IMG/VR virus record: IMGVR_UViG_2681813455_000010
Span: 1-64,000 of that record
Source of the DNA: a virus
Taxonomy: Duplodnaviria > Heunggongvirae > Uroviricota > Caudoviricetes
Length of the DNA: 64,000 bases
Direction: 5' to 3' (one strand)
The notes under the pieces were generated by a model. The model was given only the letters and a program-made list of their open reading frames with translations, was not told the origin of the DNA and ran no database searches. A program made the position numbers and the translations under genes. Positions 3,647 through 49,202 of this stretch are shown here, one piece after another. The number at the start of each line of letters is the position of its first letter. The first letter of the stretch is position 1.

Positions 3647-3809
3647 TTGGGGGTATCTCCACTAAACTGAACAGCAAATCCCCTCAATTGCTTGTAGAGT
3701 TTGGGGTACTTAAATAGACGTCAAAAGACTAAAAGGGGCATTAATATACTGATTATAAGAGGTTTTTAAATACTTGAGTAGACTTGGGGAGACGTTAGAA
3801 TGGTGCCGA

Positions 3810-3829
3810 TAATAGGAGTAAAACACTCG
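3810..3829. repeat. 20-bp direct repeat ATGGTGCCGATAATAGGAGT (reverse complement of tRNA-Thr 3' end incl. CCA); putative att site
   Basis: Identical 20-mer recurs at 16377-16396; flanks integrase-containing element. Confidence 0.65.
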
Positions 3830-5240: not shown

Positions 5241-5320
5241 ACGCAATAAAGAGGCTTCAACATAATTGGTAGCCTCTTTTATAATTACATCGTTACAGAG
5301 CGTTTTAGAGGCGTTTACGG

Positions 5321-6034
5321 CTATTCCTGTTTAAAGGCAGGCGTAATAGTGTCTTCACCTTCACTACTTGATTTTTCAGTGTTAACACGTTTTTTCATAT
5401 TAGCCCCGATGTTCTTAGATGGCTGTGTTTTGAGAGCTACAGTGTTTACAGTGCCATACGACACTAATCTGATTTGCTCAAATTCCAAATCAAATACCAG
5501 AGATTCGCTTGCTTCTTCTGTGTATTCGATGCCTGTTAAAACAACGTTCTCAAAAGTTTTATTTTCTGTAACAAGAAGAAAAGGCTGTCTACTGTCCATA
5601 ATCTGATTTAGATAATCAATCGCTAATGATCTTCTGTTCCCGTTCACCCCTGCACTCTTTAACAAGCCAGGATCGCTTTTAATCGGTGTTTCAGTGATCC
5701 TTCCTTTAAGAGAAAACTTATTGTTTTTAATTTGAACGTGATCAGACACAGTAGCACCATTTTCTACGGGGTAGCTTGTGACATCTGCCGAACGTCTCAC
5801 GTTCACATCGTCTACACTGTCAAAGGCCAGTGCCATATAATTTTCATAAACGTCATTGCCAGAAGATGCCAAGCCACTGGTAACAATAGCAAATCCGTTC
5901 TCTCCTTTTGTTTTATTAGCTTTGCTATTTTCGTTTTTTGTAGAGTTTATATCTTGTTCTGCTTTGTAAACAGCCTGAACGTGTTGTTCTGGAGTATTTG
6001 CTGCACGTATGGTTAAAATCCCGGCGGTCGCCAT
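5321..6034 (-). CDS. hypothetical protein (237 aa)
   Basis: ATG start with AAGGAAA Shine-Dalgarno; co-directional with neighbouring gene block. Confidence 0.45.
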   Translation of the reverse strand: MATAGILTIRAANTPEQHVQAVYKAEQDINSTKNENSKANKTKGENGFAIVTSGLASSGNDVYENYMALAFDSVDDVNVRRSADVTSYPVENGATVSDHVQIKNNKFSLKGRITETPIKSDPGLLKSAGVNGNRRSLAIDYLNQIMDSRQPFLLVTENKTFENVVLTGIEYTEEASESLVFDLEFEQIRLVSYGTVNTVALKTQPSKNIGANMKKRVNTEKSSSEGEDTITPAFKQE

Positions 6035-6067
6035 AATAATAATTTCCTTGTAATGTTATGGCGGGAA

Positions 6068-7897
6068 TTACCCGCCGTTGGATTGTCCTGATAAGCTGGT
6101 TAATGTTAATGATTTCAAGAAGCTATCCCGACTTGCTCTCGCTGTAAAATCCACATAATCGCTTAATCTGGATGTGTCAGAATTAATAGTAAGAGGAACC
6201 TCTGTTACCACTTCAAATGTAGGATTCAGATTAAACACAGGAGATAAATTATAAGCCGGAGTTGTCATTGCAAGATTATTTAAAGCACCCTGTTTGAGAT
6301 TGGTTATCGGTGCTTCGCTGACTGACATTTTTACATCTGACACAGAAGATTTATCATCGAAAAGCAATCCCTTAATCGTATTAAATAGAGAATGACTATT
6401 ATCAGGTGTAGTTGTTGCAGTGCCAGCGCCTTTATATTGATCAGGAACGAGATTAGAAAGATTCTGTTTCATTCCTTCATTGCTTAATGGCGGTGCATCT
6501 CCCATATTTTTCTGAATAGCTTCCGTCTTATCATCATTACGATTAAACCAGTTTACAATCTTCATAATAGCTTCAAAGAGACTTCCTGTAGCTTCTCCCA
6601 GCTTCGTAAAATACGGAGTGAGATTAGAAAGGTTTTTCATAAACTCTTCCGTTACTTTTGGATCAAGAGATTTCATAAAGCCGTCTACGAATGCTACTTG
6701 TCTTGCATCAGAAAGCTGTGAAAGCTGTCTGTTTAGTTCTCTGAATTTAACGATAGATTCTTGCTGTGTTTCTGTTAGCCATTTTCCAGAGGCTTTTTGC
6801 TGATTAATACTTTCTTGTACATCTTTAACGGAACGTTGCCAATATTTTGACGTAAGCATCAAATCATCGCCCAGGTCTTCTAAACGTTGTCCAATTTGGG
6901 AGTCTGAAAACCCTTTTTTCATCATTCCATTAACAGCCTTAGAAATTAATCCGGCTGGATTATCAGCAAATTTTTTAAGGTCGCTTTTGTTAATAACACC
7001 GATGTTTAGAAGTTCATTAATAGCGTTATCACCGCCTTTCCATTCAGATTTTCCGGTTTTCTTATCTTTCACCAATTCAGCTTCACTGTAGGATTTTGCG
7101 GCACGTTCCCTAACATCTTTCATCTGATCCAGGTATTTTCTAGCCCCTTGATCACCCATCATAGAGTCAACGCCGTTTCTATAGGCCCATTCTGTAATGT
7201 TATACATCTGGTTAACGTCTACACCGCCCAGCTTGGCACGTTGAATTAGCTCACCTTGCGTGTCAGCGTTAGCGAAGCTATTAGCCATAAATTCAGCGGT
7301 TTTGCTTGCAGCCATCACGCCAGCCGCCGCTGTAGCGCCTCCAAATAACAGAGCGCCCATAGTGGCGGAATTCCCTGATCCTCCCTTAACGGGGGCTAAT
7401 TGAGCTTTTCTGTTGCCATTAATCTTACGTTGTTGCTGTTGTAAGCGTTTCATCTGGCTATTCATACGTGCAAGCGAGATAGCCCCTTGCTCATATTGTT
7501 TCGCTATCTCTCTAGCCTGTGCAATAGCTTTATATTGTTCCGCTACAGAGAGGCGGTGCATTGCACTAATGCTTGATCCAACGTCTAAAAGCTTTAGTTC
7601 AGCTTTCTCCTTACGTGCTGCTATTTGTTGCTGTTGCCTTGCCTGTGCTCTTGCTGCGGCAGCTTGTGCTCTTTGATTCTGTTTTTCTGTTTTAGCTTTC
7701 TGTTGAGCAATCTTGTCTACTTCGCTTTGTGCTTTCTTATAGCCTTTAGTGACATTATCAAACCTCAGTTTAGCTGGCTTGATATTATCAGTGAATTCTT
7801 TTAGGCTTGTAATAGAGTCTTTCGCTTTTTTCAAGCTGTCTTTATCTACACTAAATGTAACTGTGTTCTTAATTTTAGAAGTGTTAATTTCTAACAT
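6068..7897 (-). CDS. hypothetical coiled-coil protein (609 aa) with Gln/Ala-rich helix and Gly/Ala-rich hydrophobic segment; tape-measure-like or scaffold-like (speculative)
   Basis: ATG start with AGGGGA SD; long heptad-like Q/A/R-rich stretch and GALLFGGATAAAGVMAAS segment. Confidence 0.5.
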   Translation of the reverse strand: MLEINTSKIKNTVTFSVDKDSLKKAKDSITSLKEFTDNIKPAKLRFDNVTKGYKKAQSEVDKIAQQKAKTEKQNQRAQAAAARAQARQQQQIAARKEKAELKLLDVGSSISAMHRLSVAEQYKAIAQAREIAKQYEQGAISLARMNSQMKRLQQQQRKINGNRKAQLAPVKGGSGNSATMGALLFGGATAAAGVMAASKTAEFMANSFANADTQGELIQRAKLGGVDVNQMYNITEWAYRNGVDSMMGDQGARKYLDQMKDVRERAAKSYSEAELVKDKKTGKSEWKGGDNAINELLNIGVINKSDLKKFADNPAGLISKAVNGMMKKGFSDSQIGQRLEDLGDDLMLTSKYWQRSVKDVQESINQQKASGKWLTETQQESIVKFRELNRQLSQLSDARQVAFVDGFMKSLDPKVTEEFMKNLSNLTPYFTKLGEATGSLFEAIMKIVNWFNRNDDKTEAIQKNMGDAPPLSNEGMKQNLSNLVPDQYKGAGTATTTPDNSHSLFNTIKGLLFDDKSSVSDVKMSVSEAPITNLKQGALNNLAMTTPAYNLSPVFNLNPTFEVVTEVPLTINSDTSRLSDYVDFTARASRDSFLKSLTLTSLSGQSNGG

Positions 7898-7911
7898 TTA
7901 AAATCCCCTTA

Positions 7912-8115
7912 TTAATCATTTTTATCACCTTCTTTACTTAAGAAATGGTGTAGAGCCTGATCAATACTCTCGTTTAATCTGAACATACGGGCTTTTACTC
8001 CTTCATATGGAACATCTAAAAGAGAACAGAGATATTTCAGATTTAACAAGCCTCTAGAATCATTAGCATCTAGATGTACGTGCACACCATTTTTTGATTT
8101 CAAAATCACTTCCAT
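7912..8115 (-). CDS. hypothetical protein (67 aa)
   Basis: Short ORF tightly packed between neighbouring minus-strand genes. Confidence 0.35.
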   Translation of the reverse strand: MEVILKSKNGVHVHLDANDSRGLLNLKYLCSLLDVPYEGVKARMFRLNESIDQALHHFLSKEGDKND

Positions 8116-8201
8116 ATTTTAATCACCTCTCAAAATTTAAAAATAAATAAAAAAAAGGCGAAGCGTGAATACACGCCACGCCTCTATTACACGTTAAAAT
8201 A

Positions 8202-9230
8202 TTATTTAACAGTGATTTGAACGGAGAAGCCTACACCGTGGTTTACAACCATCTGGCTATTCTCTGTAACAACGTTAACAGCATCACCACGAGAAGATTC
8301 ATAGCTGTAGCTATAGACCTCAGTAGGGGCGGCATTGATCAGTTCAAAGGTGCTGGAAGCAGCCCCGTAGATGTTCTGATATACGTTAGAGCCTTTAGCG
8401 AATTTAGGCACAGCTACAGCGTCTGCGGTCATATGTGCCAGGTGTAGCGGATCTACCAGTTTAATAACATCAATGTTAGTTCCTGGAATAGTGAACGCTG
8501 TCACTCCTGGCAGCAGGTCACGACGCTGATACACAACGTTCCCTTCTTCCAGTGGGCTTACATACTGGAATGCGTTTGCCATACCAGCAGAGAATCGAAT
8601 TGCAGAGAAGGCGTCAGGTTTACAGAAAACAACAATACGCTCTACAGCAGCCGCCTGACTCTGTGCTTTTTCAATAATATCAGTAGCAATCTGATCAAAT
8701 TCTTTAAAAATCTTCGTGGTGTCAGTGCTGGAAGCGTTCACAGTGGCTTTCATAGCTGATACGTTAAACAGCTTGCCCCACTCAATTAACACATCATCAG
8801 TTTTCGGTGTGTAAGTTTTACCGCTAAACAGAGATGCAGCTAGCACGCTCTCTTTTGTACGCTGATACGCTACGTGATGTTTTGCAACATAGTCAGCATA
8901 GATATCAGTGAGTGTTTCCTGAAAATCAGTGCCAGGCTTACGCTTGCCTTGAACATCAGAAGGACGGATCACATCTTCACGAAGAAAATACGGGATTTCA
9001 ATCAGCCATTCTTTACCTTGTTCTCGCTTAGTAACATTGTGTTCAGAAGAGAAACGAGAGGTTTCTTTGTTGAACAGAGATTCGTTGCTTTCGACAAGCT
9101 GGGAAACAGCTACTTTATGAGATGTAACCCCTACAGAATCCGTAAAATCAAGAGTAGAAAGCAGATAGTTTCTAGTGCTATGCGCAGAGAACAGAGGAGC
9201 TAAATCAACGTAATCATTACCTAGAATCAT
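8202..9230 (-). CDS. hypothetical protein (342 aa); possible major capsid protein of lambda gpE-like family (weak, pattern-based)
   Basis: ATG start with AAGGA SD; size and C-terminal half pattern (..RIVVFCKPDAFSAIRF.., ..VVY..) loosely resemble lambda gpE; no search run. Confidence 0.5.
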   Translation of the reverse strand: MILGNDYVDLAPLFSAHSTRNYLLSTLDFTDSVGVTSHKVAVSQLVESNESLFNKETSRFSSEHNVTKREQGKEWLIEIPYFLREDVIRPSDVQGKRKPGTDFQETLTDIYADYVAKHHVAYQRTKESVLAASLFSGKTYTPKTDDVLIEWGKLFNVSAMKATVNASSTDTTKIFKEFDQIATDIIEKAQSQAAAVERIVVFCKPDAFSAIRFSAGMANAFQYVSPLEEGNVVYQRRDLLPGVTAFTIPGTNIDVIKLVDPLHLAHMTADAVAVPKFAKGSNVYQNIYGAASSTFELINAAPTEVYSYSYESSRGDAVNVVTENSQMVVNHGVGFSVQITVK

Positions 9231-9248
9231 TTATTATTATTCCTTTTA

Positions 9249-9611
9249 TTAAGAAGTGAAAACCGTATTAAAGCCTTCAAGCTGGAAGCCTTTTTTAATT
9301 AATGCTGTTTTTGCTGCTTCACTTACAGCATTCAGGGCATCAGCTTTAATGCACACAAGGCCAGCATTGCTACGTAGCACATCTACAGGCTTGTTTTCTC
9401 CTGCCGTTACAAATTCACTCATAACAACATAGATATCATCTCCTGATTCATATTTAGCGCCCGTGCTTGTGATCAAGTCGCCACACTCAACATCAGCAGG
9501 AAGAGAAGCAAAAACCTTGCTTTCTACAGAGGCAAACGGATCAGTACAATAACTTACAATATCTGTGAAAGTCTTTCTAACTGGAAACAGAGTGTCTAAA
9601 TCAATAATCAT
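9249..9611 (-). CDS. hypothetical protein (120 aa); possible head decoration-like protein (position-based guess)
   Basis: ATG start with AAGGAGA SD; immediately upstream of capsid-like gene. Confidence 0.4.
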   Translation of the reverse strand: MIIDLDTLFPVRKTFTDIVSYCTDPFASVESKVFASLPADVECGDLITSTGAKYESGDDIYVVMSEFVTAGENKPVDVLRSNAGLVCIKADALNAVSEAAKTALIKKGFQLEGFNTVFTS

Positions 9612-9820
9612 TTAGTAATCTCCTTAGCTTTTAATTTGATTAATTCATTAAGGGAAGGTGTAGACGGAGAAGAAGGAGAAAAATATTTTTCAACACATCT
9701 TTCTACTTCCTCTACAGAACACCCAGCGTATTTAGCTACCATTTCGGTAATTTGTGGATTAATTTTCAGCATTTCATCTTTATACTTGATGATTTGCTCT
9801 TTATCATTTAAGAACAACAT
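9608..9820 (-). CDS. hypothetical protein (70 aa)
   Basis: ATG start, 4-bp overlap with downstream gene (coupling). Confidence 0.4.
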   Translation of the reverse strand: MLFLNDKEQIIKYKDEMLKINPQITEMVAKYAGCSVEEVERCVEKYFSPSSPSTPSLNELIKLKAKEITK

Positions 9821-10169
9821 TTATATAAACCTTGTTACCTTGTTTAAAGTAAGAAATACAACTTTTAAGTTGCATAACGGGCAAAATAAAAGGCAGCATT
9901 TAGAGCCGCCTTTTATTAACTTGTACCTATGTAATTACCCTATGTTATGCATACTCCAAGATGTATGCATAACAAAGGAAAAAAGAGGTAATAATGACAC
10001 AGTATTACTTAAGGAGGAGAAGCGGGGAGCGGAGATTTTACTCCCCTTTAACGACAAGAAGAATTTTTAATATCGAACCAATAAAGGAAAAATAATCACC
10101 CCTATATAATTATATTAACATACAATAGATGAAATGTCAAGATATTTTACAACTTTTTTGTTGCTTTTT

Positions 10170-10538
10170 TTATTCTTCTGTGATAGTAGCGCCTAAGCGT
10201 TGAGCTAGTTCAACAAGGCCATCTCCCACATAGCGAACATCAGATTCAATATCTTCTATCCAGTTTGAGAGACTCCATATCTGATCCGCTGTCAGATATG
10301 CGTTCTCACGCTTACAGAGCATCTCTACACGCTTAGAGAGGTGCTCAAAGGCATTCACAGCTAAATCCCAGTGTTTAAACGCCTCATTGAGTGCCGCTGG
10401 CGTGTTTTCTCTGTATGCTTCAAGTTCAGCACGGTTTAAAGGCAGGAGGTAATCATCCTCATAATAATTAATTAGTGAGTAAATTGTGTCATACGTGTTT
10501 TTGTTCATATTAAAAGTCTCCATAGTGATCAGCACCAT
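10170..10538 (-). CDS. hypothetical protein (122 aa)
   Basis: ORF in co-directional block; overlaps upstream gene end. Confidence 0.4.
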   Translation of the reverse strand: MVLITMETFNMNKNTYDTIYSLINYYEDDYLLPLNRAELEAYRENTPAALNEAFKHWDLAVNAFEHLSKRVEMLCKRENAYLTADQIWSLSNWIEDIESDVRYVGDGLVELAQRLGATITEE

Positions 10539-10920
10539 CTAAAATTTGGAATTCAGGGACTAAATTATTTAGGCCATTGGTGGCGAGATAACCGACGTAG
10601 TGATTATAATCTTCAAATCCTAAAATCTGGTATTTGCGTAAATCAGAGCTATCAACGATATACTCTTTTCTTTTTCTAGGTTTCCAGAATACGCCAGGTG
10701 TTGAAGATAAGATTTCTTGTAAGGCGTTAAATTCATCTCCACAAGGCACAGAGGGAGAATGTTCTATGATCTCTGTTTTCCATTCGCCAGGGGCGCTATT
10801 TTGCTTGGTGAGCGTAACTAGCTCTTTAAAGTCTTTACGTCTTAGAATAGATTTAGGTTTACTTAGAAGAGAAGCTGAATCACCGATTTTCTTAACAACG
10901 TTGTTTTTTCTTTTTGCCAT
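10510..10920 (-). CDS. hypothetical protein (136 aa), basic N-terminus
   Basis: ORF in co-directional block. Confidence 0.4.
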   Translation of the reverse strand: MAKRKNNVVKKIGDSASLLSKPKSILRRKDFKELVTLTKQNSAPGEWKTEIIEHSPSVPCGDEFNALQEILSSTPGVFWKPRKRKEYIVDSSDLRKYQILGFEDYNHYVGYLATNGLNNLVPEFQILDGADHYGDF

Positions 10921-11052
10921 TATTTACTTTTCCTTTTCTTTTAAAGGAAAACACCCCGAAATATGCTTCTAACGTGATAAAGAACAATAACCAATACATA
11001 GCTACTATCATAATAATGTTTTCCTTTTATATTTTAATTACATAGAGAGATT

Positions 11053-11331
11053 TTAGAGAGTGGAATAGATGAAGTCTATTTCTTTATCCAGTCTTTTGAG
11101 ATTGAATGTAGAGAAAGATAATTCTTTAATCTCTATAACACCGAAATTTGATAGCTGTCTAAGCCAGAATTTTAAACCATCTTCAGAGCACCCTGCTCGA
11201 TGTAACACATCGCTATATTTTAGCGGTGTTGGCTTTCCTTTATAGAGGTAAGCAAGTGTTTCATAGATGCGTTTTCCTGTGTCATTACACTGAATTCTGT
11301 CTACTTGATTTTTTACTAAATATTGAATCAT
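11053..11331 (-). CDS. hypothetical small DNA-binding-like protein (92 aa)
   Basis: ORF in co-directional block; helix-turn-helix-like middle segment (guess). Confidence 0.35.
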   Translation of the reverse strand: MIQYLVKNQVDRIQCNDTGKRIYETLAYLYKGKPTPLKYSDVLHRAGCSEDGLKFWLRQLSNFGVIEIKELSFSTFNLKRLDKEIDFIYSTL

Positions 11332-11342
11332 AACCCTCCTTA

Positions 11343-12035
11343 TTAAAATGGAATATCAAAGTCTTCATATACTTTGGGATGTTTCTTAGCAAAATATGCC
11401 TCAATACCATTTGGTCGTTTTAGCCCGTATCTACAAGCTAGTGAATTTGCAAACTCAATAAATGATGCCCCTGCTGTTCTGGTATTCTTCTGCTGGCAGA
11501 TAAGAGAGGCAAAATTCTCTAACACATCCTCCTCATTATCATTAGCTACCTTTTCATTTGATGAAACAGGTGTTTCTTCCGTCTCCCACGGCAAAGGCGT
11601 ATCCCAATCATCATCAAGAACATCAAAAGAAGGCTGTTTATGGCCTTTAGGTTGTTCCTGTGCTTCTTCTGCCTCAGAAAGATCAGAGAGTGATGATTCT
11701 CCTGGGGGAGTAATATGTGCATCTGTGAGAGGGAGAGCATTGTAAATCAAAGATGAAATATACGGATCAGGATGTGGGGATGTTTCTAATAATCCCATCT
11801 CTTTAAGATCGTTTATCTTACGTTTAATTGTTGACGATGAAGACTTAAAAATCTTAGCTAATGTTTCGTGACTTTCATAACAATTAAGGTTGTTTTCCTG
11901 ATAACTAAGGAATCGAAAATAAAGCACAATATGTAATAGATCTAAATCTTTTCCTTGAGGGAATTTATCAGAATAAATCTTTGATACATTATCAAACGTG
12001 TCATAGTGTTTTGTAAAAGTTAGTTGATTAATCAT
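11343..12035 (-). CDS. hypothetical protein (230 aa) with N-terminal winged-helix-like segment and acidic linker; candidate replication or regulatory protein
   Basis: ATG start with AAGGAGA SD; ..ETLAKIFKSSSSTIKRKINDLKEMGLLE.. resembles wHTH. Confidence 0.45.
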   Translation of the reverse strand: MINQLTFTKHYDTFDNVSKIYSDKFPQGKDLDLLHIVLYFRFLSYQENNLNCYESHETLAKIFKSSSSTIKRKINDLKEMGLLETSPHPDPYISSLIYNALPLTDAHITPPGESSLSDLSEAEEAQEQPKGHKQPSFDVLDDDWDTPLPWETEETPVSSNEKVANDNEEDVLENFASLICQQKNTRTAGASFIEFANSLACRYGLKRPNGIEAYFAKKHPKVYEDFDIPF

Positions 12036-12086
12036 TAAAAATCTCCTTATAAATCACGCTTAATGCGCTACTAAAGTGAATGAGGA

Positions 12087-12254
12087 TCACTTACCCTTTT
12101 TTTGTTTGATGTTCTCTGCTGCTTCAGTAATGATTTCTAACATCAAATCACTGACCATAATTTGCCTTTTCTTGGCTTCAGCAAATAAAACCTTGAAGAT
12201 TTCAGGGTCAACGTGTAGGTAAGTGCGCGGAATTGGTTTCTTAGTTTCGCTCAT
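12087..12254 (-). CDS. small ribbon-helix-helix-like protein (55 aa)
   Basis: ATG 12254 with AGGAG SD; translation MSETKKPIPRTYLHVDPEIFKVLFAEAKKRQIMVSDLMLEIITEAAENIKQKKGK; below ORF-track cutoff, found by eye. Confidence 0.4.
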   Translation of the reverse strand: MSETKKPIPRTYLHVDPEIFKVLFAEAKKRQIMVSDLMLEIITEAAENIKQKKGK

Positions 12255-12273
12255 AGTTTTCTCCTTCTATTCT

Positions 12274-12462
12274 TTACTCTGTTTCAGATTCTTTTTCATT
12301 TTTTCTTAGTTCATCAATAATCTTGAGTGCTTCATTGAAGCAAGCTGCTCGTTCTGGATAACCTCGACTCCTTGCCATATTACGATTCATTACTACTTGA
12401 TGGCGTGTAAGCTCACCTTTTTTAAATGCCTGGATGACGTGCTCAGGTGTAAACCATTTCAT
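12274..12462 (-). CDS. hypothetical protein (62 aa)
   Basis: Short ORF adjacent to RHH gene. Confidence 0.3.
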   Translation of the reverse strand: MKWFTPEHVIQAFKKGELTRHQVVMNRNMARSRGYPERAACFNEALKIIDELRKNEKESETE

Positions 12463-13221
12463 AAAAAACTCCTTATTCAGTTAAAAGAAAAACACCTTGC
12501 AAGCCTGACGGCTTCAAAGTGCATTGATTTTGATTATTTAGAGAAGAATGTTTTTCTGTCCCTCTAATACCTATTATTACATATAAAGAAACATTTGTCA
12601 ATACCTTTTCACAAAAAATCTGATCTTTTTCATGCACTTACATTTTTTCTTAGCAATTCGTGCTCTTCTGTGTAGTGCTATTCTTCATTATTGTCTAAAA
12701 CGCTCTAAAACGCGTTCTAACGAGATTTTGATAAAAGCAATACATTCCCTTATGTAATGGCTGTTTAGCTCGCCAGAGGCTTATTTAAGGGGCTTATTTT
12801 GTATTTGTTAGGTATATGAAAAGGTAATGGTAGATATAAGATAGAGAGTCACTTTATAAAACGCTCTGTAAAGCCCTGTAGTGAGCTTATATATGTAGGC
12901 AATGCGTTTCCATTCCCTACCCTGCTTAATGCTGTTAGAGAAGCATTTAGACCCCTTATTTTTAATTAATTAAAGTATCCTCTATACATTCCTGTTATGA
13001 AACACCTCTGAATCCTTCATAAAACACATTATGACGCAAAGAACACTTTTCTAAGGTGATTCCCTTTCTGAACTCTGTTTCTTGCGTCAAAGAGCTACAC
13101 AGAGTTTATAAAGCTATTATTAATAATAAAGTAGATAAAGTAAGTAAGATAACTAAGATAGATAAGATTAATAAGATCAGAATTCTCTTTCGGTGTCGCC
13201 TCTGGCTTTTCCACCGAAAAC

Positions 13222-16376: not shown

Positions 16377-16396
16377 ATGGTGCCGATAATAGGAGT
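16377..16396. repeat. second copy of 20-bp direct repeat ATGGTGCCGATAATAGGAGT (att)
   Basis: Identical to 3810-3829. Confidence 0.65.
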
Positions 16397-16422
16397 CGAA
16401 CCTACGACCTTCGCATTACGAA
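16378..16422 (-). tRNA. tRNA-Thr (anticodon CGU, thrW-like) 3' 45-nt fragment (anticodon loop to CCA); not a complete gene
   Basis: Reverse complement TTCGTAATGCGAAGGTCGTAGGTTCGACTCCTATTATCGGCACCA has a T-arm (GTAGG/TTCGACT/CCTAT), acceptor 3' strand and CCA; sequence beyond 16422 cannot pair as acceptor/D-arm. Confidence 0.6.
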
Positions 16423-18050: not shown

Positions 18051-18341
18051 TTAGACTTCAACCGATTCAGAGATCTCTAACGCATCATCAACTTCAATGC
18101 CCAGATAACGGACTGTGCTTTCCAGTTTCTTATGGCCCAACAGAAGTTGGATCACCCAGAGATTCTTGGTTTTCTTGTAGATCAGGTAAGGTTTTGTTTT
18201 TCTCATGGAATGTGTGCTGTAAAGCGAATCTTCGAGACCAAGCTTTTCTACCCACCCATGAAAGATTCGGTTGTATTGCCGGGTTGATATGTGCCGATTA
18301 GTTCCGATCCGAGACCGGAACAAGAAGTCTTTACTATGCAA
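18051..18341 (-). pseudogene. C-terminal remnant (~96 aa) of a tyrosine recombinase/integrase
   Basis: ..HSMRKT..LLGHKKLESTVRYLG.. = conserved H-x-x-R / LLGH / Y catalytic box; no N-terminal domain upstream. Confidence 0.6.
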
Positions 18342-18376: not shown

Positions 18377-19516
18377 CTAGAGCTTATAAAGCTCAGTTAA
18401 TCTAGCTTTTTCTTTGGCAAATTCTTCATCAAGGTTCGAGAAGTCTGGAAGTGTAACCATTAAATCCTTAAGTTGATGAATAACATTCCAGGCATCGTAA
18501 TGAATAAAGGGGTTTAAGCCAATAACGTTTCCCTCATCATTATTTTTAGATTTTCCTACACCACATAATTTGATGAATTTGTTGATTGCAGTTGTTTCAT
18601 TCCAGTCAGAAACAAAAAGAAGCAAGGCAGAAACAGCCAAAAGGGGATTGTTTTTTTTAACAGCGGATAAGCTCCTGATCTTTCTGAAAAGAAACTCGTG
18701 ATGTCTAGTTATTTTTTGTGCTATCCTTATCGTTGCTTCATATTTATCTTTAAGCAACCTTCTATCATAAACCTGATAACCTCGATCTCGTGCTACTAAT
18801 CGATATGCTTGTTTAGTAAATGTGGTGCTATTCACAAGATTATAGAAAATAGCATTATTCTTATTGGTCATATCGATCATCAATGATGGGTATTTGAATC
18901 TTAAAGAACGATAAACTTCATCGTTTATATCAAACCAAGATTTATTTTTTCTCTCTTCAGTGACAATATATGTATCTTCTCCTTTGCGGGAATACATGCT
19001 GGCTCTTACTAGATTGATCATGTGAGGGCTGTAGTTAACAGAAAAAGTGCCTGATTGGCGTAATTCAGTAAACCACCGTCGCATGTTTCTAATATCTTCC
19101 TGATTGAACTCTTCATGTTCAATACCTCTACATACAAGCTCTCGAATTATACTTGTAATCTCAGAGTCGGAAGTGCCTAATTTTATAAAACCATCCTTTG
19201 AAGAATCTATTTGTTTATCATCCCCATTGTAATGATCGCAAAATATTTTGTGCGCGTCTGTTCCGTCTTTTGTTCTAAACGAAAAATGAGATTGGCTAAC
19301 TATTTTATTTGTTGTTTTCGAATAACCTTCTGAAACAACAATTGCACCGCTTACATTACAAATTGGGCACTCTGCATCAAACGCAACAAATTCCTTGAAA
19401 TCACTAAAATTAAGTACGTTATTTGATAAATAAAGGTTTAGCAATTGAACTATGTCCAATTCCTTTTTGAATGTACGAGAATAGACCGTAATTGCCATTT
19501 GCACTCCCTTCGTCAT
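18377..19516 (-). CDS. hypothetical protein (373-379 aa); probable start ATG 19498 (AAGGGAG SD)
   Basis: Long AT-rich ORF with good SD; no recognisable family by eye. Confidence 0.5.
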   Translation of the reverse strand: MTKGVQMAITVYSRTFKKELDIVQLLNLYLSNNVLNFSDFKEFVAFDAECPICNVSGAIVVSEGYSKTTNKIVSQSHFSFRTKDGTDAHKIFCDHYNGDDKQIDSSKDGFIKLGTSDSEITSIIRELVCRGIEHEEFNQEDIRNMRRWFTELRQSGTFSVNYSPHMINLVRASMYSRKGEDTYIVTEERKNKSWFDINDEVYRSLRFKYPSLMIDMTNKNNAIFYNLVNSTTFTKQAYRLVARDRGYQVYDRRLLKDKYEATIRIAQKITRHHEFLFRKIRSLSAVKKNNPLLAVSALLLFVSDWNETTAINKFIKLCGVGKSKNNDEGNVIGLNPFIHYDAWNVIHQLKDLMVTLPDFSNLDEEFAKEKARLTELYKL

Positions 19517-20442
19517 AAATTCAGTTTGTATGAAATATTATCGCATAAAGATACTGATGAGCCAGTAATATAACTAGAAAATATTTTTTGTGGTTCAGCG
19601 ACCTAGACGTCTGCTACTGGCACAGAGCAGACCATCGGACTGAACTGAAGGTCCTCTCTGTGCGAGAAACGGAAGTTAGCAATTGTGATACAGACGTGGG
19701 GCATTACTCGCTTTACAGTGTGTTAATCAATTGGAAACAGGTCAGAATTTATTGGGTGGAATGACACCTTTAAACTTCTTGCGCATCGCAAGGAATATCT
19801 CCACCAGACGGTAAGACAGTAGATTGCGCCACAAGTCCTCAGAATGCCCTTTGCTGGGTTAACCACACGTCGTAATCATCCTTCCAGTGCAGCGGATCAA
19901 GATCGTAATGCTCATAGTCACGCGATTTCAAATACAAGCCCAGTGGTGTTATCCGTGAGCTGGACAGTGCTTCCGGCAACATGACTGAGACAGACAAAAA
20001 ATCAGTTAGTACAGCATTGACTCAGGTTGAGCAGGAGTTAAAACAAACTGGGCTGGAGCAGTAGAAGCCTGCAGTGAATTCCCTGAATCAGGCGATTAAG
20101 GTGGCTTAAGAGTCCGTGTATGCCATGTGCCGCGAGATGTCGTGCTATACGTGAAAGTCAGCGATATATATCGTTTTGAAGATGATTTAGGTTACGGGAG
20201 TGTCTCTGGGTGATGTATTACTTCATCGACATCGGCTACGCACGGGTTGCCGCGATGCAGCGGATGGAAGCTGTCTGGGAAAAGAAAGCTCCGCTTGCTA
20301 ATATTAGTACATCCGATGAAAAATCGTGTGTGAAAGTTGCAGATTAGTAATATACTAATGAAGAATGGAGATGTATTTTATATAATAAAAACATCTAAGT
20401 AGAGCTTTTTATTTTAAATCCTTCATTATTACTGGAGATTTT

Positions 20443-22221
20443 ATGGGTTTTTATAATGACGCACTGAGTAAAATATATAGTGAAGATGATGATTTCCTAA
20501 TTATAGGATTAACAGGGAGGACGGGGTCAGGCTGTTCAACAGTTTCTAATATACTGTCATCAGAATCAAGTGAGATAAAGCATTCTCTATTTAACGGTGA
20601 TTACCCTAAGTCGAATGAAGAAAGAAAAGAGCGGGTTCTATTTAAATATTTTTCCGTGTCATGGGTTCCATTTATAAAAATACAAGCAAGTTCCATACTG
20701 ACATTGTGTTTATCAAAGGACTTTGATGGTAAGCTGAATAAATTTATTCGGGAAGTGACGGAGTTAGGTAATGACCAAAGAATCCTAGAGTCAACAGTTA
20801 ATGATCTTGAATCTATACTAAAAGAAATTAAAGCTAAAGATGAAAGCTCTGATCATGATATAGATGATAAGATAAAATTCATAAATGAATATCTAATAAA
20901 AGCGAATACACAAATTAAATCCATATTTAAGAACAAGGCTGACTATATAAAATTATATCAAGCTATAGGTAATAATTATAGATCTAGTGGGATGTACCAT
21001 GACAGTTCATTTAGTGATGATTTCCATGGCTTTTTTCTTCCTAAAAAAATAAATGATATAATTCAAAGATTAAGAACCTTAGCAAAAGAAAAGAACACAA
21101 AAACTGGAGAAAAGAAACCTATTTATATAGTTATTGATGCTATAAGAAATCCGTTCGAAGCAACATACTTCCAAGATAGATACTCATCATTTTATTTAAT
21201 GGCTGTTTCTACAGAAGAGCATTACAGGCATCAAAGGCTTAGAGAACAAGGTTTAACTGATGCTGAGATAAAAGATATTGATGCAAAAGAATACCGTAAA
21301 TCATCTTTGGATGAGAAGTCATCATATATATATCAGAATATACAGTCTTGTTTAGAAATATCAGACATCTATGTTGAGAATCCGGAAGAGGAAAATGTTG
21401 TTTGTCGGTACTCAGGATTGGCTAATCAATTAATTAAATTCACTTCATTAATGAAGCGTCCTGGTATAATAACTCCATCAAATGTTGAACGTTGCATGCA
21501 GATAGCATATACAGCTAAGTTGAACTCTGGTTGTATATCCAGGCAGGTAGGCGCTGCAGTATCTGATAGTTCATTTTCAATTAAGTCTATTGGTTGGAAT
21601 GATGTACCAAGTGGTCAAGTTCCTTGCTCTTTAAGGGATAGGTTTGATTTGTCTGAGGGGATTGATGATATTGCTTACTCTGAATTCGAAAAGAACGAAA
21701 ATAGTTTCATTCGAAAAATAGATAGCACTAAGATTATTTTTTTAGATGTTAAAAATAAAGGAATGAGAGCTCCATTTTGTTTTAAAACAGAATGGAATAA
21801 TATCCTTGATGATAAATACAAAGAAGATCTACGGGTCGAACATAAGTTAAATGATGATGAGTTTGCTATTATTGACAAAATAAAGTCTAACGCTAATCAA
21901 GTTTTTACAAGATCACTTCATGCTGAAGAGAATGCTTTCTTACAAATATCTAAGTATGGTGGCGTTGGTATACAGAATGGTTTTTTGTTCACAACAGCAA
22001 GCCCTTGTGAATTATGTTCTAAAAAAGCGTATCAATTAGGGATCAAACAAATATATTACATAGATCCATACCCTGGTATAGCAATGAGGAATATTTTAAA
22101 CGCAGGGAGCAATAAACCATTGCTTAAGCTTTTCAATGGTGCAATAGGTAAGGCATTCCATAATTTTTACACGCCAAGAATGGCTTATAAAGATGAGCTT
22201 TCAGCAAGATCTAGGGGATGA
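20443..22221 (+). CDS. P-loop kinase-like N-terminal domain fused to cytidine/dCMP-deaminase-like C-terminal domain; candidate nucleotide-depletion defence protein (dCTP-deaminase type)
   Basis: ATG with GGAG SD; N-terminal GLTGRTGSGCST P-loop-like motif; C-terminal HAEENA...SPCELC zinc-deaminase signature. Confidence 0.55.
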   Translation: MGFYNDALSKIYSEDDDFLIIGLTGRTGSGCSTVSNILSSESSEIKHSLFNGDYPKSNEERKERVLFKYFSVSWVPFIKIQASSILTLCLSKDFDGKLNKFIREVTELGNDQRILESTVNDLESILKEIKAKDESSDHDIDDKIKFINEYLIKANTQIKSIFKNKADYIKLYQAIGNNYRSSGMYHDSSFSDDFHGFFLPKKINDIIQRLRTLAKEKNTKTGEKKPIYIVIDAIRNPFEATYFQDRYSSFYLMAVSTEEHYRHQRLREQGLTDAEIKDIDAKEYRKSSLDEKSSYIYQNIQSCLEISDIYVENPEEENVVCRYSGLANQLIKFTSLMKRPGIITPSNVERCMQIAYTAKLNSGCISRQVGAAVSDSSFSIKSIGWNDVPSGQVPCSLRDRFDLSEGIDDIAYSEFEKNENSFIRKIDSTKIIFLDVKNKGMRAPFCFKTEWNNILDDKYKEDLRVEHKLNDDEFAIIDKIKSNANQVFTRSLHAEENAFLQISKYGGVGIQNGFLFTTASPCELCSKKAYQLGIKQIYYIDPYPGIAMRNILNAGSNKPLLKLFNGAIGKAFHNFYTPRMAYKDELSARSRG

Positions 22222-23022
22222 AAATATTGATACAGCTAAAGGCAACGAACCAGAAATGCTCGAGACTATTCTGGCTAAGTCTGCCGGGCGATAAGCACGA
22301 GTGCAGATGCTGTTCCAAAAGTCTTCTATTCAATAAATTACGAAGTGCTAACTAACTGACCATGTACAATAAGAACAAATCACCTTGAATTGCTCTTGAT
22401 TGAATGGTGAAGAATTATGAGGGTGATAGTCCTTACCACCCTCAATTAAAATTAAAGGTATTTACGTGAGAAATTTTTCTTAACCACACTACTAATAAAA
22501 CTATTTAGTCCATGCCCATCCTGGGCTAGCTCTTTCATCTTAGAGACCGTTGAAGCACCCAGTTTTGTAGAATCGTAACGTATTTCCATCCATCTTTAAA
22601 CTGTACTGTGATAACATCGGGAGTAATCTCATAAAACACTATTCCCGAATTACCGCCTTAATTAGCATAAGTTGGCATTTTTTATTCTTATTAAATTATT
22701 GCAGCAAGTCGCTGCACTCTAGTCATATGACCCCATGCTAAACCTAATTGTTGAGCTAAGTCATAATTTCGATTATTTGATGAACGTAAGTTATTTGACA
22801 GGCAGAATTAACCATACACAGTAATATCCGTTTCTGGCACATAGCAGTCCTATAGATAGTGGCATACAGTCATAGATGGTCGATGGGAGGAGGTGCAAAT
22901 TCTCCCATACAAAAAATACGTAAAATCAATAACAGCTGGAAATTATTTAATAATCAAATTATCGGAAGTTCACCAGCCAGCCGCAGTATTCTGCCACGAC
23001 AAGTTGCTGCGGCTTTTTATGT

Positions 23023-23310
23023 TTAACGGATAAACAGCCAGACCAGCAGACACGCCACCGCCGGCACCGCAAAATCCATCAGACTTGCTACATCCCACGC
23101 GCTTGGATCAAAACCGCCCCACCACGGCATATTCATACGCTTGCCATGCCCGAACATTTCAATCCAGCGATATTCTGCCTGGGTGTGTTCACGCGCAATG
23201 AAGAACGTACAACCGGCTATCGCTCCGTAAGCCCAGTTCCCGGTAAAAAGACCAATCAGTAGCTGCGCAGCCACAGCACAAAGTGCATGAAGTAAGGGGC
23301 TTATATCCAT
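23023..23310 (-). CDS. small membrane protein (95 aa)
   Basis: ATG with AAGGAGGAG SD; two hydrophobic helices. Confidence 0.45.
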   Translation of the reverse strand: MDISPLLHALCAVAAQLLIGLFTGNWAYGAIAGCTFFIAREHTQAEYRWIEMFGHGKRMNMPWWGGFDPSAWDVASLMDFAVPAVACLLVWLFIR

Positions 23311-24034: not shown

Positions 24035-24316
24035 TCACATCCAGCCACGAAGTTGATGCTCAACAGCAACCACGTATTCATCGAATATTGACGGTGTTTT
24101 CACATCATTAATGATGCGCACGTTTACAAAATATCCATCTTCCTTAATACATACCGGTTCGCCATCTTCAGTCAGCTCTCCGGTTTCTTTGTACACGTTA
24201 CCGATCACGTCAATAAGAATATCATCCTGCATCGACTCGTCATCATAATAGCCAGTACTCTCCATAAAGGCCGAAAAGTTGGCTCTGTCGGGAAATTTGA
24301 GTGTTAAATCTTTCAT
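24035..24316 (-). CDS. hypothetical protein (93 aa) downstream of side tail fibre gene
   Basis: ATG with GGGGGAG SD. Confidence 0.4.
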   Translation of the reverse strand: MKDLTLKFPDRANFSAFMESTGYYDDESMQDDILIDVIGNVYKETGELTEDGEPVCIKEDGYFVNVRIINDVKTPSIFDEYVVAVEHQLRGWM

Positions 24317-26688
24317 TAGATTGACTCCCCCACCTGAGCATCAGTCAATGCCTTGTGCCATATTCTGAAATTCCTGACATGACCAAATAAATGACGTAAC
24401 CCGGCTGTAGTCTGGCCTCCAATACGGATAATTGCGGTGTTCTGAATATAGGACCATGTGGTTTTTGTTTCGCTGGATATACGCCCGTTACTTACTGAGC
24501 ACGTAGACTGATCTGACTTTACACGCATCCCCATAACCATTTTTTCAAGCGATGCGTTTTCGTTTACCCGTCTGTTAGCTCCTCCAATATCGCAATAAGG
24601 AAATCCGTCGTAATCTGCTGAAGAACCGAAGCCAAGAATAATAGCCGCTCCGGTTTGATGACCGCCGGTGTCAAAAACACGCGGCGCTGCATTTGGCGTT
24701 TTATACCAGTTCTTATGTACCTCACAAAGAACCGTAAAAGGAAGATTATAAAGATTATTCTTAATGGGAACTGTAACTATATCGCTTGCGCGGGTCGCCG
24801 CCGTCGTTCCTGATATAATAAAAGATGATACACAAGGCCCATTTTCTACTTGTGGGGTGGCCAGATAAATATAGTCACCAGATACGGTTGCCCCGCCCTG
24901 CTTAGGAGAATACTGTATCTGAGAACCTATTTTTAACTCCCCATCAATTGCCTGAATTGTTGCCTCTGCAAAAATCCATCCGGTAGCTTCGTCCTTTCTG
25001 ACTCTCGCTGTAATCCTTGAGGCAGCACCGCCTGTCATATTAATTTCAAGCGTTTGTGTATCAATATACGCATCACCAAGAAAAGTTGTTGCGCTACCGT
25101 CATATTTATCAAACCGGATACGCAACCTTACCTGCAGTTCTGTTTTAAAACGACATGAGGTTGTCACGTATTTATTATCGCCTGAGACATCAACTGACTT
25201 TGTTGCAGCAATTGATGCCATATTAATGGCTGAGGTTTGCCCAATCAGAGAATCGTTACAGACGAACTTTCCATAGGTAAAACCAAAACTATCCTTCCCG
25301 GTTTCGGGAACATCCATATTTGACGATCGCCCCCAACTGGCAGGGTTTTCCGAATTGAGCATGTAGTTTGTTCTTTGCCCCTCAATAAGCAGGCCATCAC
25401 GTTCAAACCGTGGCTCGTCAATGGCAGCCTCTGTCAGCACACCAGATTTATTAATATAGGTTGCTTTCGATGCGCGTTTAAACTTTACAACCTTATCGCC
25501 AGGCATCGTTATTTCATCATCACCAATAACAATCTTTTTATATGACGGCGAAAAGCCCGTAATCATATCCAGTGAATCGTTAAACGGTATCCACACATCG
25601 GGAAGCGGCTGCAAAACTTGTTTATACGGCTCCGCAGCCTGGCTTGCATACTCTCTGGCTGCGTCTTCACTTGCTTTTGCAGCCGTCTGGCTTGCAGCGG
25701 ATGCTTTCGCCGAGTTAGCCGCCGCAGTCTCGCTCGCCTTTGCGTTGGTTTCACTGGTTTTTGCAGCTTTTTGACTGTTGGCTGATGCAGTGGCAGAAGA
25801 AGCCGCCGCACTTGCAGAACCAGCTGCGGCACTCTCGCTTTGGGCCGCTGCATCCTGACTGTTTTTCGCCGCAGTTTCGCTGGCTTTGGCATTCGTTTCG
25901 CTGGTCTTCGCTGCCGTCTGGCTGGACTTTGCGTTAGTTTCGCTCGTCTTCGCTGCTTTCTGGCTGTTAGCCGCAGCAGTTGCTGATCCAGCTGCTGAAG
26001 TCGCAGAACCGGCTGCAGCACTCTCGCTTTCGGCTGCTGCAGCCTGACTGCTTTTCGCCGCAGTTTCACTGGTTTTGGCATTCGTTTCGCTTGTTTTCGC
26101 TGCCGTCTGGCTGGACTTTGCGTTGGTTTCGCTCGTCTTTGCGGCTGTCTCGCTGTTTTTCGCGTTGGTTTCTGATTTTTTGGCTGCTGTCGCGGAGTTT
26201 GCCGATGCAGTCTGTGAGGCCGCTGCTGCCTGTGCGCTGTTAGCTGCATTCGTTTCTGAGGTTTTCGCCGCGTTCTTCGATGATGCCGCTGCAGTTTCGG
26301 ATTTCTTTGCCGCCGCTGCGCTCTGAGAGGCGGCTTCGGCGTTGCGTGCCGCTTCTTCCACCATCTCCTCAAAACGACGCAATGCCTCCGGCATGACATC
26401 ATCTTCCGTCATGGCACCGAGAAAATCATTCAGCGTACCTGGTCTGGAACCTTCATAGACGGTAATGATCCCGGCATGTGAAGGCGGAAAACCTTCAACC
26501 AGCAGGGTGACGCTGTACTGGCCATACTCAACATCCATGCTGTAACGCCCGGCTTCATCCGGATTTTCAGAGGCCACCGTGTTCACCAGTACCGTGGTGC
26601 TGTTACGCTTTGCCTTCAGTTGAATAGTGCAGTTCTGTATTGGTTTTCCCGCACCATCTTTCAGCACACCAGAAATCTGTACTGCCAT
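24316..26688 (-). CDS. stf: side tail fibre protein (lambda Stf-like) with Ala/Ser/Thr-rich repeat region
   Basis: N-terminus MAVQISGVLKDGAGKPIQNCTIQLKAKRNSTT.. closely matches lambda Stf as I recall it; start set at ATG 26688. Confidence 0.85.
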   Translation of the reverse strand: MAVQISGVLKDGAGKPIQNCTIQLKAKRNSTTVLVNTVASENPDEAGRYSMDVEYGQYSVTLLVEGFPPSHAGIITVYEGSRPGTLNDFLGAMTEDDVMPEALRRFEEMVEEAARNAEAASQSAAAAKKSETAAASSKNAAKTSETNAANSAQAAAASQTASANSATAAKKSETNAKNSETAAKTSETNAKSSQTAAKTSETNAKTSETAAKSSQAAAAESESAAAGSATSAAGSATAAANSQKAAKTSETNAKSSQTAAKTSETNAKASETAAKNSQDAAAQSESAAAGSASAAASSATASANSQKAAKTSETNAKASETAAANSAKASAASQTAAKASEDAAREYASQAAEPYKQVLQPLPDVWIPFNDSLDMITGFSPSYKKIVIGDDEITMPGDKVVKFKRASKATYINKSGVLTEAAIDEPRFERDGLLIEGQRTNYMLNSENPASWGRSSNMDVPETGKDSFGFTYGKFVCNDSLIGQTSAINMASIAATKSVDVSGDNKYVTTSCRFKTELQVRLRIRFDKYDGSATTFLGDAYIDTQTLEINMTGGAASRITARVRKDEATGWIFAEATIQAIDGELKIGSQIQYSPKQGGATVSGDYIYLATPQVENGPCVSSFIISGTTAATRASDIVTVPIKNNLYNLPFTVLCEVHKNWYKTPNAAPRVFDTGGHQTGAAIILGFGSSADYDGFPYCDIGGANRRVNENASLEKMVMGMRVKSDQSTCSVSNGRISSETKTTWSYIQNTAIIRIGGQTTAGLRHLFGHVRNFRIWHKALTDAQVGESI

Positions 26689-26748
26689 ACTCACTCCACA
26701 AATAAAAAAGGCGCCATTTCTGGCGCCCGTATTGGGGTTATAAATATT

Positions 26749-48550: not shown

Positions 48551-48747
48551 GATTGTGGTGCTTTTTGTGGTAGTTACCCACTTACGCACTTTGTATTGCT
48601 ATGCCAGCAGTTAGCTTCTACTGTAAAACTATTCATGCAGCAAACCTGCACTTCACCACAAAATGGGATTCAATACCCACAACTCTATCTGCATCTCTAC
48701 TCAGGCATCAGCCTTCTTCGTTATCGTATACAGACAAGCTATGAATT

Positions 48748-48963
48748 TTAATCAGTAATAATGACATTTGCTGCTGCAGGACCTTTAGCACCACTCTCTA
48801 CAGAGAAGGTAACCTTTTGGCCTTCAAATAAGGTTCGATAATTATCATTCTGAATTGCAGAAAAATGCACAAACACATCTTTACTACCATCAACAGGAGA
48901 AATAAAGCCAAAACCTTTATCAGCGTTAAACCATTTTACTAAACCAGTCATTTTATTTGACAT
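48748..48963 (-). CDS. cold-shock protein (CspA family) carried in prophage late region
   Basis: [38 protein letters not shown].. canonical cold-shock domain with RNP motifs. Confidence 0.9.
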
Positions 48964-49202
48964 TCTACATTCCTTAACTTGAGCCTTTCGGCATAAATGA
49001 TTTGTATAACAGAAACGACTTCGTACTTAATTGGAGAGACTCAAAGAAGGAATAAGTGAATAACACCTGAAATGAGAACTGCTTTAGTAAACTACTTCGT
49101 ATATCGTCTGTTCTTCAAACCGACGCAGCCATTAACGCATAGTTGTACACTTGGAAGCAATGTTTATTTTAGACATCCAGCCACCTCCCCATTTAAAACA
49201 CA

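Follow-up and report, generated by a model that had tools for sequence, protein, structure and literature searches.

The anti-phage deoxycytidine triphosphate (dCTP) deaminases form a family of defence enzymes known since 2021-2022, which Tal et al. describe from E. coli (AW1.7/U09) and define in their Methods as single proteins of more than 350 amino acids (aa) with an N-terminal kinase-like and a C-terminal zinc deaminase domain of the cytidine/dCMP type (10.1101/2021.04.26.441389). In the experimentally validated AW1.7 enzyme (WP_045268677.1; Tal et al. 2022), mutation of the nucleotide-binding motif (G29A/C30A) as well as of C370 and C401 (C370A/C401A), which were targeted as predicted zinc ligands, leads to loss of both defence and dCTP depletion (10.1101/2021.04.26.441389). 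Enzymes of the AW1.7 type and the AvcD toxin are treated as the same kind of enzyme in the literature, AvcD being part of AvcID (DcdV-DifV), a type III toxin-antitoxin system of Vibrio cholerae, V. parahaemolyticus, P. mirabilis and enterotoxigenic Escherichia coli (ETEC) (Hsueh et al. 2022; 10.1101/2021.03.31.437871; PMC10511110). Here we describe a gene related to these systems in a stretch of 64,000 nucleotides (nt) of a tailed virus (positions 1 to 64,000 of IMG/VR record IMGVR_UViG_2681813455_000010), hereafter referred to as the window. Judged by its sequence, the encoded protein clearly belongs, though as yet unlabelled, to the anti-phage dCTP deaminases, and we consider it likely, with a probability of about 85%, that it is a functional single-protein anti-phage dCTP deaminase, borne by a prophage and protecting the lysogen by depletion of dCTP.

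The AvcD toxin has been described as a combination of P-loop kinase-like and dCMP-deaminase domains, as found in the window protein. In the AvcID system both toxin domains are required, dCTP as well as dCMP is deaminated, and the enzyme becomes active when a phage stops host transcription. The toxin by itself leads to filamentation or replication arrest, from which the cognate RNA gives relief. The antitoxin AvcI, which holds AvcD in an inactive state, is an RNA of 152-174 nt (about 280 nt for the full transcript) encoded immediately 5' of avcD on the same strand; it is co-transcribed with avcD, exceeds it 20-60 times in abundance and is degraded once the phage halts host transcription (10.1101/2021.03.31.437871; PMC10511110). 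AvcI RNAs have no sequence similarity to one another and act on their cognate partners only (10.1101/2021.03.31.437871). Defensive dGTPases (bacterial SAMHD1-like; Tal et al. 2022) also deplete one deoxynucleotide and have a trigger tied to the same phage function, but their HD phosphohydrolase fold and chemistry are unrelated to the deaminase.

Family membership and domain structure

The DNA of the window is 100% identical to the chromosome of E. coli SF-468, in whose annotation the product, identical to RefSeq WP_060710333.1, is labelled 'hypothetical protein'. An original prediction, made from the sequence alone, had described an AT-rich open reading frame (ORF) combining a P-loop-like motif with a HAEENA/SPCELC deaminase signature. 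The ORF is confirmed on the plus strand, with a G+C content of 32.7% as compared to 56.5% in the prophage structural genes, and both motifs are present (Table 1). It is a real gene and not a chance ORF. Codon positions 1, 2 and 3 are 97.5, 98.8 and 90.7% identical to those of a homologue with 97% identity, which indicates that the ORF is under purifying selection.

The whole protein is covered by profiles of the defence family. The PADLOC dCTPase model PDLC02373 matches aa 8-585 (E = 5.3e-127, 423 bits), and the NCBIfam model NF041025, named 'anti-phage dCTP deaminase', aligns over profile positions 1-437 of 437 (E = 9.7e-111, 370.7 bits). BLASTP aligns the protein end to end with the AW1.7 enzyme at 38% identity (E = 6e-123), which together with the two profiles supports the predicted match to antiphage dCTP deaminases. 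Amongst the PHROG families, phrog_8118 gives a full-length match (2e-117). A database protein search returned more than 4,500 homologues at E < 1e-5, and when complete E. coli genomes were searched in distant mode, 38 diverged copies labelled 'anti-phage dCTP deaminase' came up, that of AW1.7 among them. In these comparisons by hidden Markov models (HMMs) and BLASTP, the best homologues were two-domain, full-length proteins of the defence family and not housekeeping dCMP or riboflavin deaminases. With 592 aa, an N-terminal kinase-like domain and a C-terminal zinc deaminase domain of the dCMP type, the protein has the build by which Tal et al. define the family.

The residues that were found to be essential in the AW1.7 enzyme are conserved. 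Its G29, C30, C370 and C401 correspond to G30, C31, C364 and C395 of the window protein, which, like H493, E495, C522 and C525, all lie in invariant alignment columns; the columns of the HAEENA and SPCELC motifs are invariant in two family alignments (A1 and A5). In the 80 species loci analyzed, HAEENA is present in 79 and PCELC in 74, while the P-loop, detectable in 74 of the 80, reads G[RQ]xG[SA]GC[ST]T in all of them, with the cysteine in every one. The cysteine at the position of the Walker A lysine, to which the original prediction had drawn attention, is real, but it is not an oddity of one protein, being invariant across the family and a hallmark of the anti-phage dCTP deaminases. By analogy to deaminases of the cytidine deaminase fold, His493 would act as a zinc ligand and Glu495 as the proton shuttle, with Cys522 and Cys525 as predicted zinc ligands.

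A direct comparison with the AW1.7 enzyme shows the same two-domain build (576 aa versus 592 aa here), an identical P-loop core (GLTGRTGSGC), the same HAEENAF and SPCELC motifs and conservation of the four mutagenised residues. Both genes are located inside mobile elements integrated at tRNA genes, an integrase island at tRNA-Phe for AW1.7 and a lambdoid prophage for the gene in the window. The proteins differ in the kinase-like domain, where the helical insertion is shorter in the window protein and an insert of about 9 aa is found at aa 215-225, and in the deaminase domain, which is about 26-28 aa longer. No similarity is found between the upstream regions of the two genes.

The AlphaFold2 model, for which 50 sequences were aligned, reaches high confidence (mean predicted local distance difference test (pLDDT) score 84.9, predicted TM-score 0.85) and shows the two-domain fold. 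In the N-terminal domain, strands 18-25, 78-81, 227-232, 250-256 and 309-312 alternate with helices; Foldseek searches against the PDB return weaker matches to dephospho-CoA kinases (8dv0, 4ttp), and Pfam gives weak matches to AAA_18 and CoaE at aa 19-68. The only Pfam domain above threshold is dCMP_cyt_deam_1 (2.5e-12, aa 347-539). For the C-terminal domain, Foldseek finds structures from phage T4 (1vq2), human (2w4l), cyanophage S-TIM5 (4p9c/e), S. mutans (2hvw) and PBCV-1 (7fh4), and sequence and profile searches of the PDB concur in matching it to dCMP-type deaminases. The fold and the HAE...PCxxC zinc site of this domain are shared with the dCMP deaminases (T4 Cd, S-TIM5, human DCTD, S. 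mutans) and the PBCV-1 dCMP/dCTP enzyme; these, however, consist of a single domain with a length of 130-190 aa, function in dTTP synthesis, lack a kinase-like domain and reach only 15-22% identity. No solved full-length relative was found by sequence, profile or fold search of the PDB, and a literature search found no structural paper on the AvcD family.

In the deaminase domain, a clade-specific insert (Table 1) separates the CFK motif from the catalytic HAE; in alignment A1 it recurs only in P0003 and P0004 (homologues of 59-97% identity). The spacing from CFK to HAE amounts to 47 aa in the window protein, whereas in 70 of the 79 species loci it is 21 aa. The insert region is modelled as helical (447-466 and 471-481), with low pLDDT at 480-491.

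The RefSeq label can be traced to a score. The equivalog cutoff of NF041025 is 400 bits, an annotation rule curated by NCBI rather than a biological definition, and the protein is called 'hypothetical protein' because it scores below that value. The scores range from AW1.7 (449 bits) over ETEC1747 (424), P0090 (401), P0008 (392), P0003 (386) and P0051 (386) to the window protein (371) and P0004 (366); P0051 is still named 'anti-phage dCTP deaminase' by NCBI in spite of its sub-cutoff score. The cutoff slices a continuum of scores and is no biological boundary. In the clusters of at least 90% identity, which comprise sequences from E. coli, Proteus terrae and Yersinia enterocolitica, and in the 59% cluster from Morganella morganii, the source names are 'hypothetical protein' or 'dCMP/deoxycytidylate deaminase' only. 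This enterobacterial clade bears such labels in the public databases since it falls just under the HMM cutoff.

Table 1. Features of the deaminase gene, its product and its surroundings. Positions are those of the window unless stated otherwise.
Feature	Position	Strand	Remarks
ORF, anti-phage dCTP deaminase (AvcD/DcdV family)	20443..22221	+	ATG start, 592 aa
N-terminal P-loop kinase-like domain with long helical insertion	20491..21462 (~aa 17-340)	+	Pfam, AlphaFold2 model, Foldseek
P-loop GLTGRTGSGCST	20506-20541 (aa 22-33)	+	Cys31 at canonical Walker A Lys position
C-terminal zinc-dependent dCMP/CMP-type deaminase domain	21481..22077 (aa 347-545)	+	Pfam, PDB sequence and fold matches
Segment with Cys364 (NSGC) and Cys395 (QVPC)	21523..21627	+	both Cys invariant
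Clade-specific insert ILDDKYKEDLRVEHKLNDDEFAIIDKIK	21802..21885 (aa 454-481)	+	between CFK motif and catalytic HAE
HAEENA catalytic motif	21919-21936 (aa 493-498)	+	sequence motif
SPCELC motif	22000-22017 (aa 520-525)	+	sequence motif
Non-coding DNA, 47.4% GC	19618..20313	.	accompanies gene in E. coli prophages
Leader travelling with gene, 129 nt	20314..20442	+	25.6% GC
Two palindromes	20343-20359, 20369-20396		in leader
Perfect -10 TATAAT	20381-20386	+	in leader
Shine-Dalgarno GGAG	20434-20437	+	in leader
thrW 3'-end copy, 21 nt	3799-3819		exact repeat
thrW tRNA-Thr 3'-end exact repeat, 45 nt, antisense orientation	16377..16421	+	distal att (attachment site) copy of thrW element array
DUF4365 protein, 346 aa	16762-17802	-	Pfam 1.4e-31
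Integrase C-terminal fragment	18051-18341	-	
379-aa protein	18377-19516	-	full-length phrog_12525 match, 1.2e-138, unknown function
Qin-like/lambdoid early-region fragment, 610 nt	22235..22844		directly 3' of deaminase gene
Lambdoid tail-fibre genes	from 23023	-	
thrW, intact	just beyond 64000; SF-468 record 3958099-3958174		adjoins lambdoid prophage integrase

Prophage carriage and mobility of the gene

The gene is AT-rich, foreign terminal cargo of a lambdoid prophage integrated at thrW. Exact copies of the thrW 3' end at 3799-3819 and 16377-16421 indicate that several elements are stacked at this tRNA gene; ARAGORN detected no intact tRNA within the window. The three copies of the 3' end (21 nt, 45 nt and intact) bound a tandem array of a satellite- or phage-like element that has an integrase of its own (~3960-13000), a remnant or cargo segment, and the lambdoid prophage. 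The gene had originally been placed in a 'defence-like islet' between the att fragment and the tail-fibre end of the prophage. While this placement holds and the att fragment is real, the gene belongs to the cargo of the prophage rather than to a separate islet. In strain Rb-50, an identical protein is encoded next to the same lambdoid tail-fibre end, with the other flank being chromosomal (torT, MFS transporter, hydrolase, LysR), and the DNA common to Rb-50 and the window begins at about 19618. Since Rb-50 keeps the prophage flank and changes the chromosomal one, the gene travels with the prophage end, in a cargo or 'moron' position.

The fragment directly 3' of the gene (22235-22844) stems from between hokD and the DUF977/replication genes of a Qin-like prophage. 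Counterparts with 80-95% identity exist in 42 further E. coli genomes, where they flank a variable cargo slot. In SCU-113 a 626-aa 'ATP-dependent nuclease' ends at the same junction, and in Es_ST80 the slot holds a different small gene. The slot looks like a recombination hotspot for defence cargo. Further afield, the homologue with 90% identity is located on a plasmid-like Rep3/TraM contig, where it adjoins a restriction-modification cluster comprising two DNA methylases and a BpuJI_N/NOV_C protein, and these surroundings are a defence-island context. Full-length relatives at 37-49% identity are also present in seven plasmid records.

Several other features of the window are of note. The DUF4365 protein matches Argonaute-associated restriction endonuclease domains (8.5e-22) and PDC-M02A in PADLOC, with its C-terminal 180 aa lying outside assigned families; it is possibly a second defence gene in the same cargo segment. 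No family of Pfam, NCBIfam or PADLOC matches the 379-aa protein. Its gene is located upstream of the deaminase gene in divergent orientation in SF-468 and is absent from the Rb-50 locus. Beside the immunity region of the prophage, a gene for a Panacea-domain protein (58091-58944, plus strand; SF-468 record 3951706-3952559) and an adjacent one for a 127-aa hypothetical protein may constitute a PanA-type toxin-antitoxin pair on the same prophage. A cspA thermoregulator (Rfam RF01766, 155.9 bits) lies at 48732-49124 on the minus strand, upstream of a prophage cspB-like gene. The tail-fibre ORF at 24316-26694 on the minus strand encodes, according to the ORF list, 792 aa with a long Ala/Ser/Thr-rich repeat region; RefSeq splits this stretch into three pieces, one of them a pseudogene.

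Upstream DNA and possible modes of control

A gap of 926 nt without long ORFs separates the deaminase start codon from the upstream gene, and the stretch 19618..20313 within it holds only ORFs of up to 58 aa. How far the homology reaches upstream depends on the relative: the locus with 97% identity (L012) aligns to position 19715, the one with 90% (L011) only to 20314, and in an alignment of upstream regions the loci with 71% and 59% (L005 and L009) show no similarity beyond the ATG. The stretch 19618..20313 is absent from L011, L005 and L009. The 71% homologue starts 60 nt behind a housekeeping gene and is followed by glyS at a distance of 82 nt, and 200 nt separate the 59% homologue from the LysR gene in front of it. 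Between 19715 and 20313, identity to L012 is 92.4% with 13 gap columns, as compared to 90.7% at third codon positions of the ORF, and this part diverges at about the neutral (synonymous) rate. The proximal 129 nt are 87.7% identical to L011 with third codon positions at 75.7%, and the leader is constrained. The G+C content breaks from 47.4% (19618-20313) to 25.6% (20314-20442) and 32.7% (ORF). Taken together, the shared 129 nt, their constraint and the break in composition make the transferred unit look like the ORF plus a leader of about 129 nt. The leader contains a putative promoter with a TATAAT element, which was read from the sequence by eye; a consensus promoter scan made no call for a plus-strand promoter-like site in 19500-20442.

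An RNA antitoxin of the AvcI type was looked for in the same region. Rfam searches, run for the whole window at the gathering threshold and for 19400-23100 at E ≤ 5, returned nothing relevant, the matches near the gene at E ≤ 5 being noise only (snoZ194, Enterococcus sRNA_1300). The predicted folding of the upstream RNA is unremarkable, with z-scores of -0.54 and 0.04, the latter for the 19618..20313 stretch. Upstream of the 97% homologue there is a 69-aa ORF (L012 390-599, equivalent to about 19986-20195 of the window), which was rejected as a conserved protein: the window has no counterpart of at least 50 aa, its longest plus-strand ORFs there being 27-28 aa. This segment is the least conserved part of the DNA shared with L012 (87-90% identity). 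For comparison, upstream spacers in 72 reference loci have a median length of 256 nt and are shorter than 100 nt in 19 cases, in a crude survey that is too noisy to carry weight, owing to spurious ORFs in GC-rich genomes.

A common AvcI-like element upstream of AW1.7, LF4-1 and ETEC1747 was considered and rejected, as AW1.7 shares none with the other two. The similarity between LF4-1 and ETEC1747 we take to be largely a 3'-end fragment of ssrA (transfer-messenger RNA) in reverse complement (L003 ~2750-2800, L004 ~2760-2800). The ETEC-type and LF4-1 genes would then presumably sit at an ssrA att site next to the integrase of a P2-like prophage, and their 'conserved upstream' DNA would in part be att DNA.

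The AvcID systems have an RNA antitoxin at the 5' side; for the gene in the window no evidence of such an RNA was found, and the conserved upstream DNA comprises only 129 nt and the spacers of close homologues 60-200 nt. As the known AvcI RNAs share no sequence similarity, the absence of an RNA antitoxin is unprovable from sequence. The genes of Tal et al. were cloned with their promoter regions (10.1101/2021.04.26.441389), for which reason their data neither demand nor exclude an RNA antitoxin. Membership of the gene in the AvcID toxin-antitoxin group is unproven, and a different off-switch appears possible. Tentatively, the insert-bearing clade of E. coli, Proteus, Yersinia and Morganella could represent a stand-alone dCTP deaminase without a cis-encoded AvcI RNA, in which the off-switch and the sensing of infection would be intrinsic to the protein or provided by a host factor; we regard this as a doubtful proposal, though one worth stating.

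Alternative explanations, proposed mechanism and significance

Several observations weigh against a functional dCTP deaminase of the known kind. Identity to any tested enzyme is only 38%, the NF041025 score of 370.7 bits stays below the 400-bit cutoff, and the deaminase domain bears the clade-specific insert of about 26-28 aa. An AvcI-type RNA that would account for the off-state was not identified by Rfam, upstream alignment, folding or divergence. Finally, the databases hold many copies from this clade that are split or truncated, which indicates that the gene is often lost. Broken copies occur in E. coli ST131 (340 + 202 aa) and Morganella morganii (344 aa, or 259 + 181 aa); the split copies suggest either that the gene is often inactivated or that the AT-rich sequence was wrongly assembled.

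These split relatives, the score under the NCBIfam cutoff and the mosaic of fragments around the gene (integrase, 18051-18341; Qin-like, 22235-22844) could mean that the window holds only the remains of a defence gene, inactive or in decay. We consider this improbable for the copy at hand, as its ORF is intact over 592 aa and occurs with identical sequence on 40 contigs, all catalytic and experimentally essential residues are kept, the substitutions follow the pattern of purifying selection, and the ribosome-binding site and -10 element are intact.

A gene inside a prophage might instead encode an auxiliary metabolic dCMP deaminase which, like Cd of T4, makes dUMP/dTMP for replication of the prophage and has no role in defence. 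The matches to phage dCMP deaminases, which include the closest solved structures (T4 1vq2, S-TIM5 4p9c) and, more weakly, the dCMP-deaminase families of PHROG, are confined to the C-terminal domain, whereas the alignment with a validated defence enzyme spans the whole protein, its Cys-P-loop domain included. The position of the gene also speaks against a part in phage metabolism: it occupies a cargo slot past the tail fibres, on the strand opposite to the late operon and with its own promoter-like leader, and its G+C content departs from that of the phage genes. Moreover, no close relative was found in 50,697 sequenced phage genomes, the best matches being partial at 25-27% identity. Such a metabolic role is quite unlikely.

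Even less probable is a housekeeping or competence deaminase (dCMP deaminase/ComEB or RibD-like) fused by chance to a kinase-like domain. Its attraction lies in the generic dCMP_cyt_deam_1 domain, the only one that Pfam sees above threshold, and in the name 'dCMP deaminase' given to some database copies, but the protein scores 36.6 bits with ComEB against a cutoff of 219, and in architecture and residues it agrees with the defence family. A housekeeping gene is also hard to reconcile with the sporadic distribution, in 6 of 5,426 complete E. coli genomes and in every case on mobile DNA, which is the kind of distribution expected of the anti-phage dCTP deaminases. A secreted polymorphic-toxin deaminase (MafB19/DddA-like) attacking the DNA or RNA of competitors, as hinted at by weak Pfam matches to MafB19-deam (E = 0.016) and Bd3614-deam (E = 0.098) and by a PT-HINT gene downstream of the 97% homologue in L012, can practically be dismissed, given that both matches are far under the gathering scores, that there is neither a secretion or trafficking domain nor an adjacent immunity gene, and that both sequence and fold assign the deaminase domain to the dCMP-deaminase type.

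We therefore favour an anti-phage dCTP deaminase, for which the tested relatives suggest the following mode of action. The C-terminal zinc deaminase (H493/E495, C522/C525) would convert dCTP, and probably dCMP, to deoxyuridine nucleotides. Activity would also depend on the N-terminal Cys-P-loop domain, which probably serves to bind nucleotides or to regulate the enzyme; as the Walker lysine is missing, this domain is unlikely to act as a conventional kinase. The gene may be driven by its own promoter and ribosome-binding site at the tail-fibre/att end of the prophage, with the enzyme being kept inactive in the uninfected lysogen. Shut-off of host transcription by a lytic phage would then release it, the dCTP pool would collapse and replication of the phage DNA would stall, so that the lysogen, and the prophage with it, would be shielded from superinfecting phages. 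Substrate, depletion of dCTP on infection and trigger are in this scheme those expected by analogy to the tested enzymes.

As the family itself is known, the points of interest are modest, namely carriage by a prophage, the clade-specific insert and the lack of a recognisable RNA antitoxin. The locus would provide a clean example of a temperate phage whose terminal cargo slot holds a defence by nucleotide depletion. This is relevant to superinfection exclusion and to the selection of therapeutic phages against strains of this kind. Defence inventories built on RefSeq product names would miss the clade in clinical E. coli, Proteus, Yersinia and Morganella. As a compact module without a recognisable RNA antitoxin, the gene could be a tractable system for testing how universal AvcI-type control is. 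If the clade should indeed prove to be stand-alone, it would represent a second regulatory logic within the family, with autoinhibition via the insert or the Cys-P-loop domain, or a host factor, as example routes.

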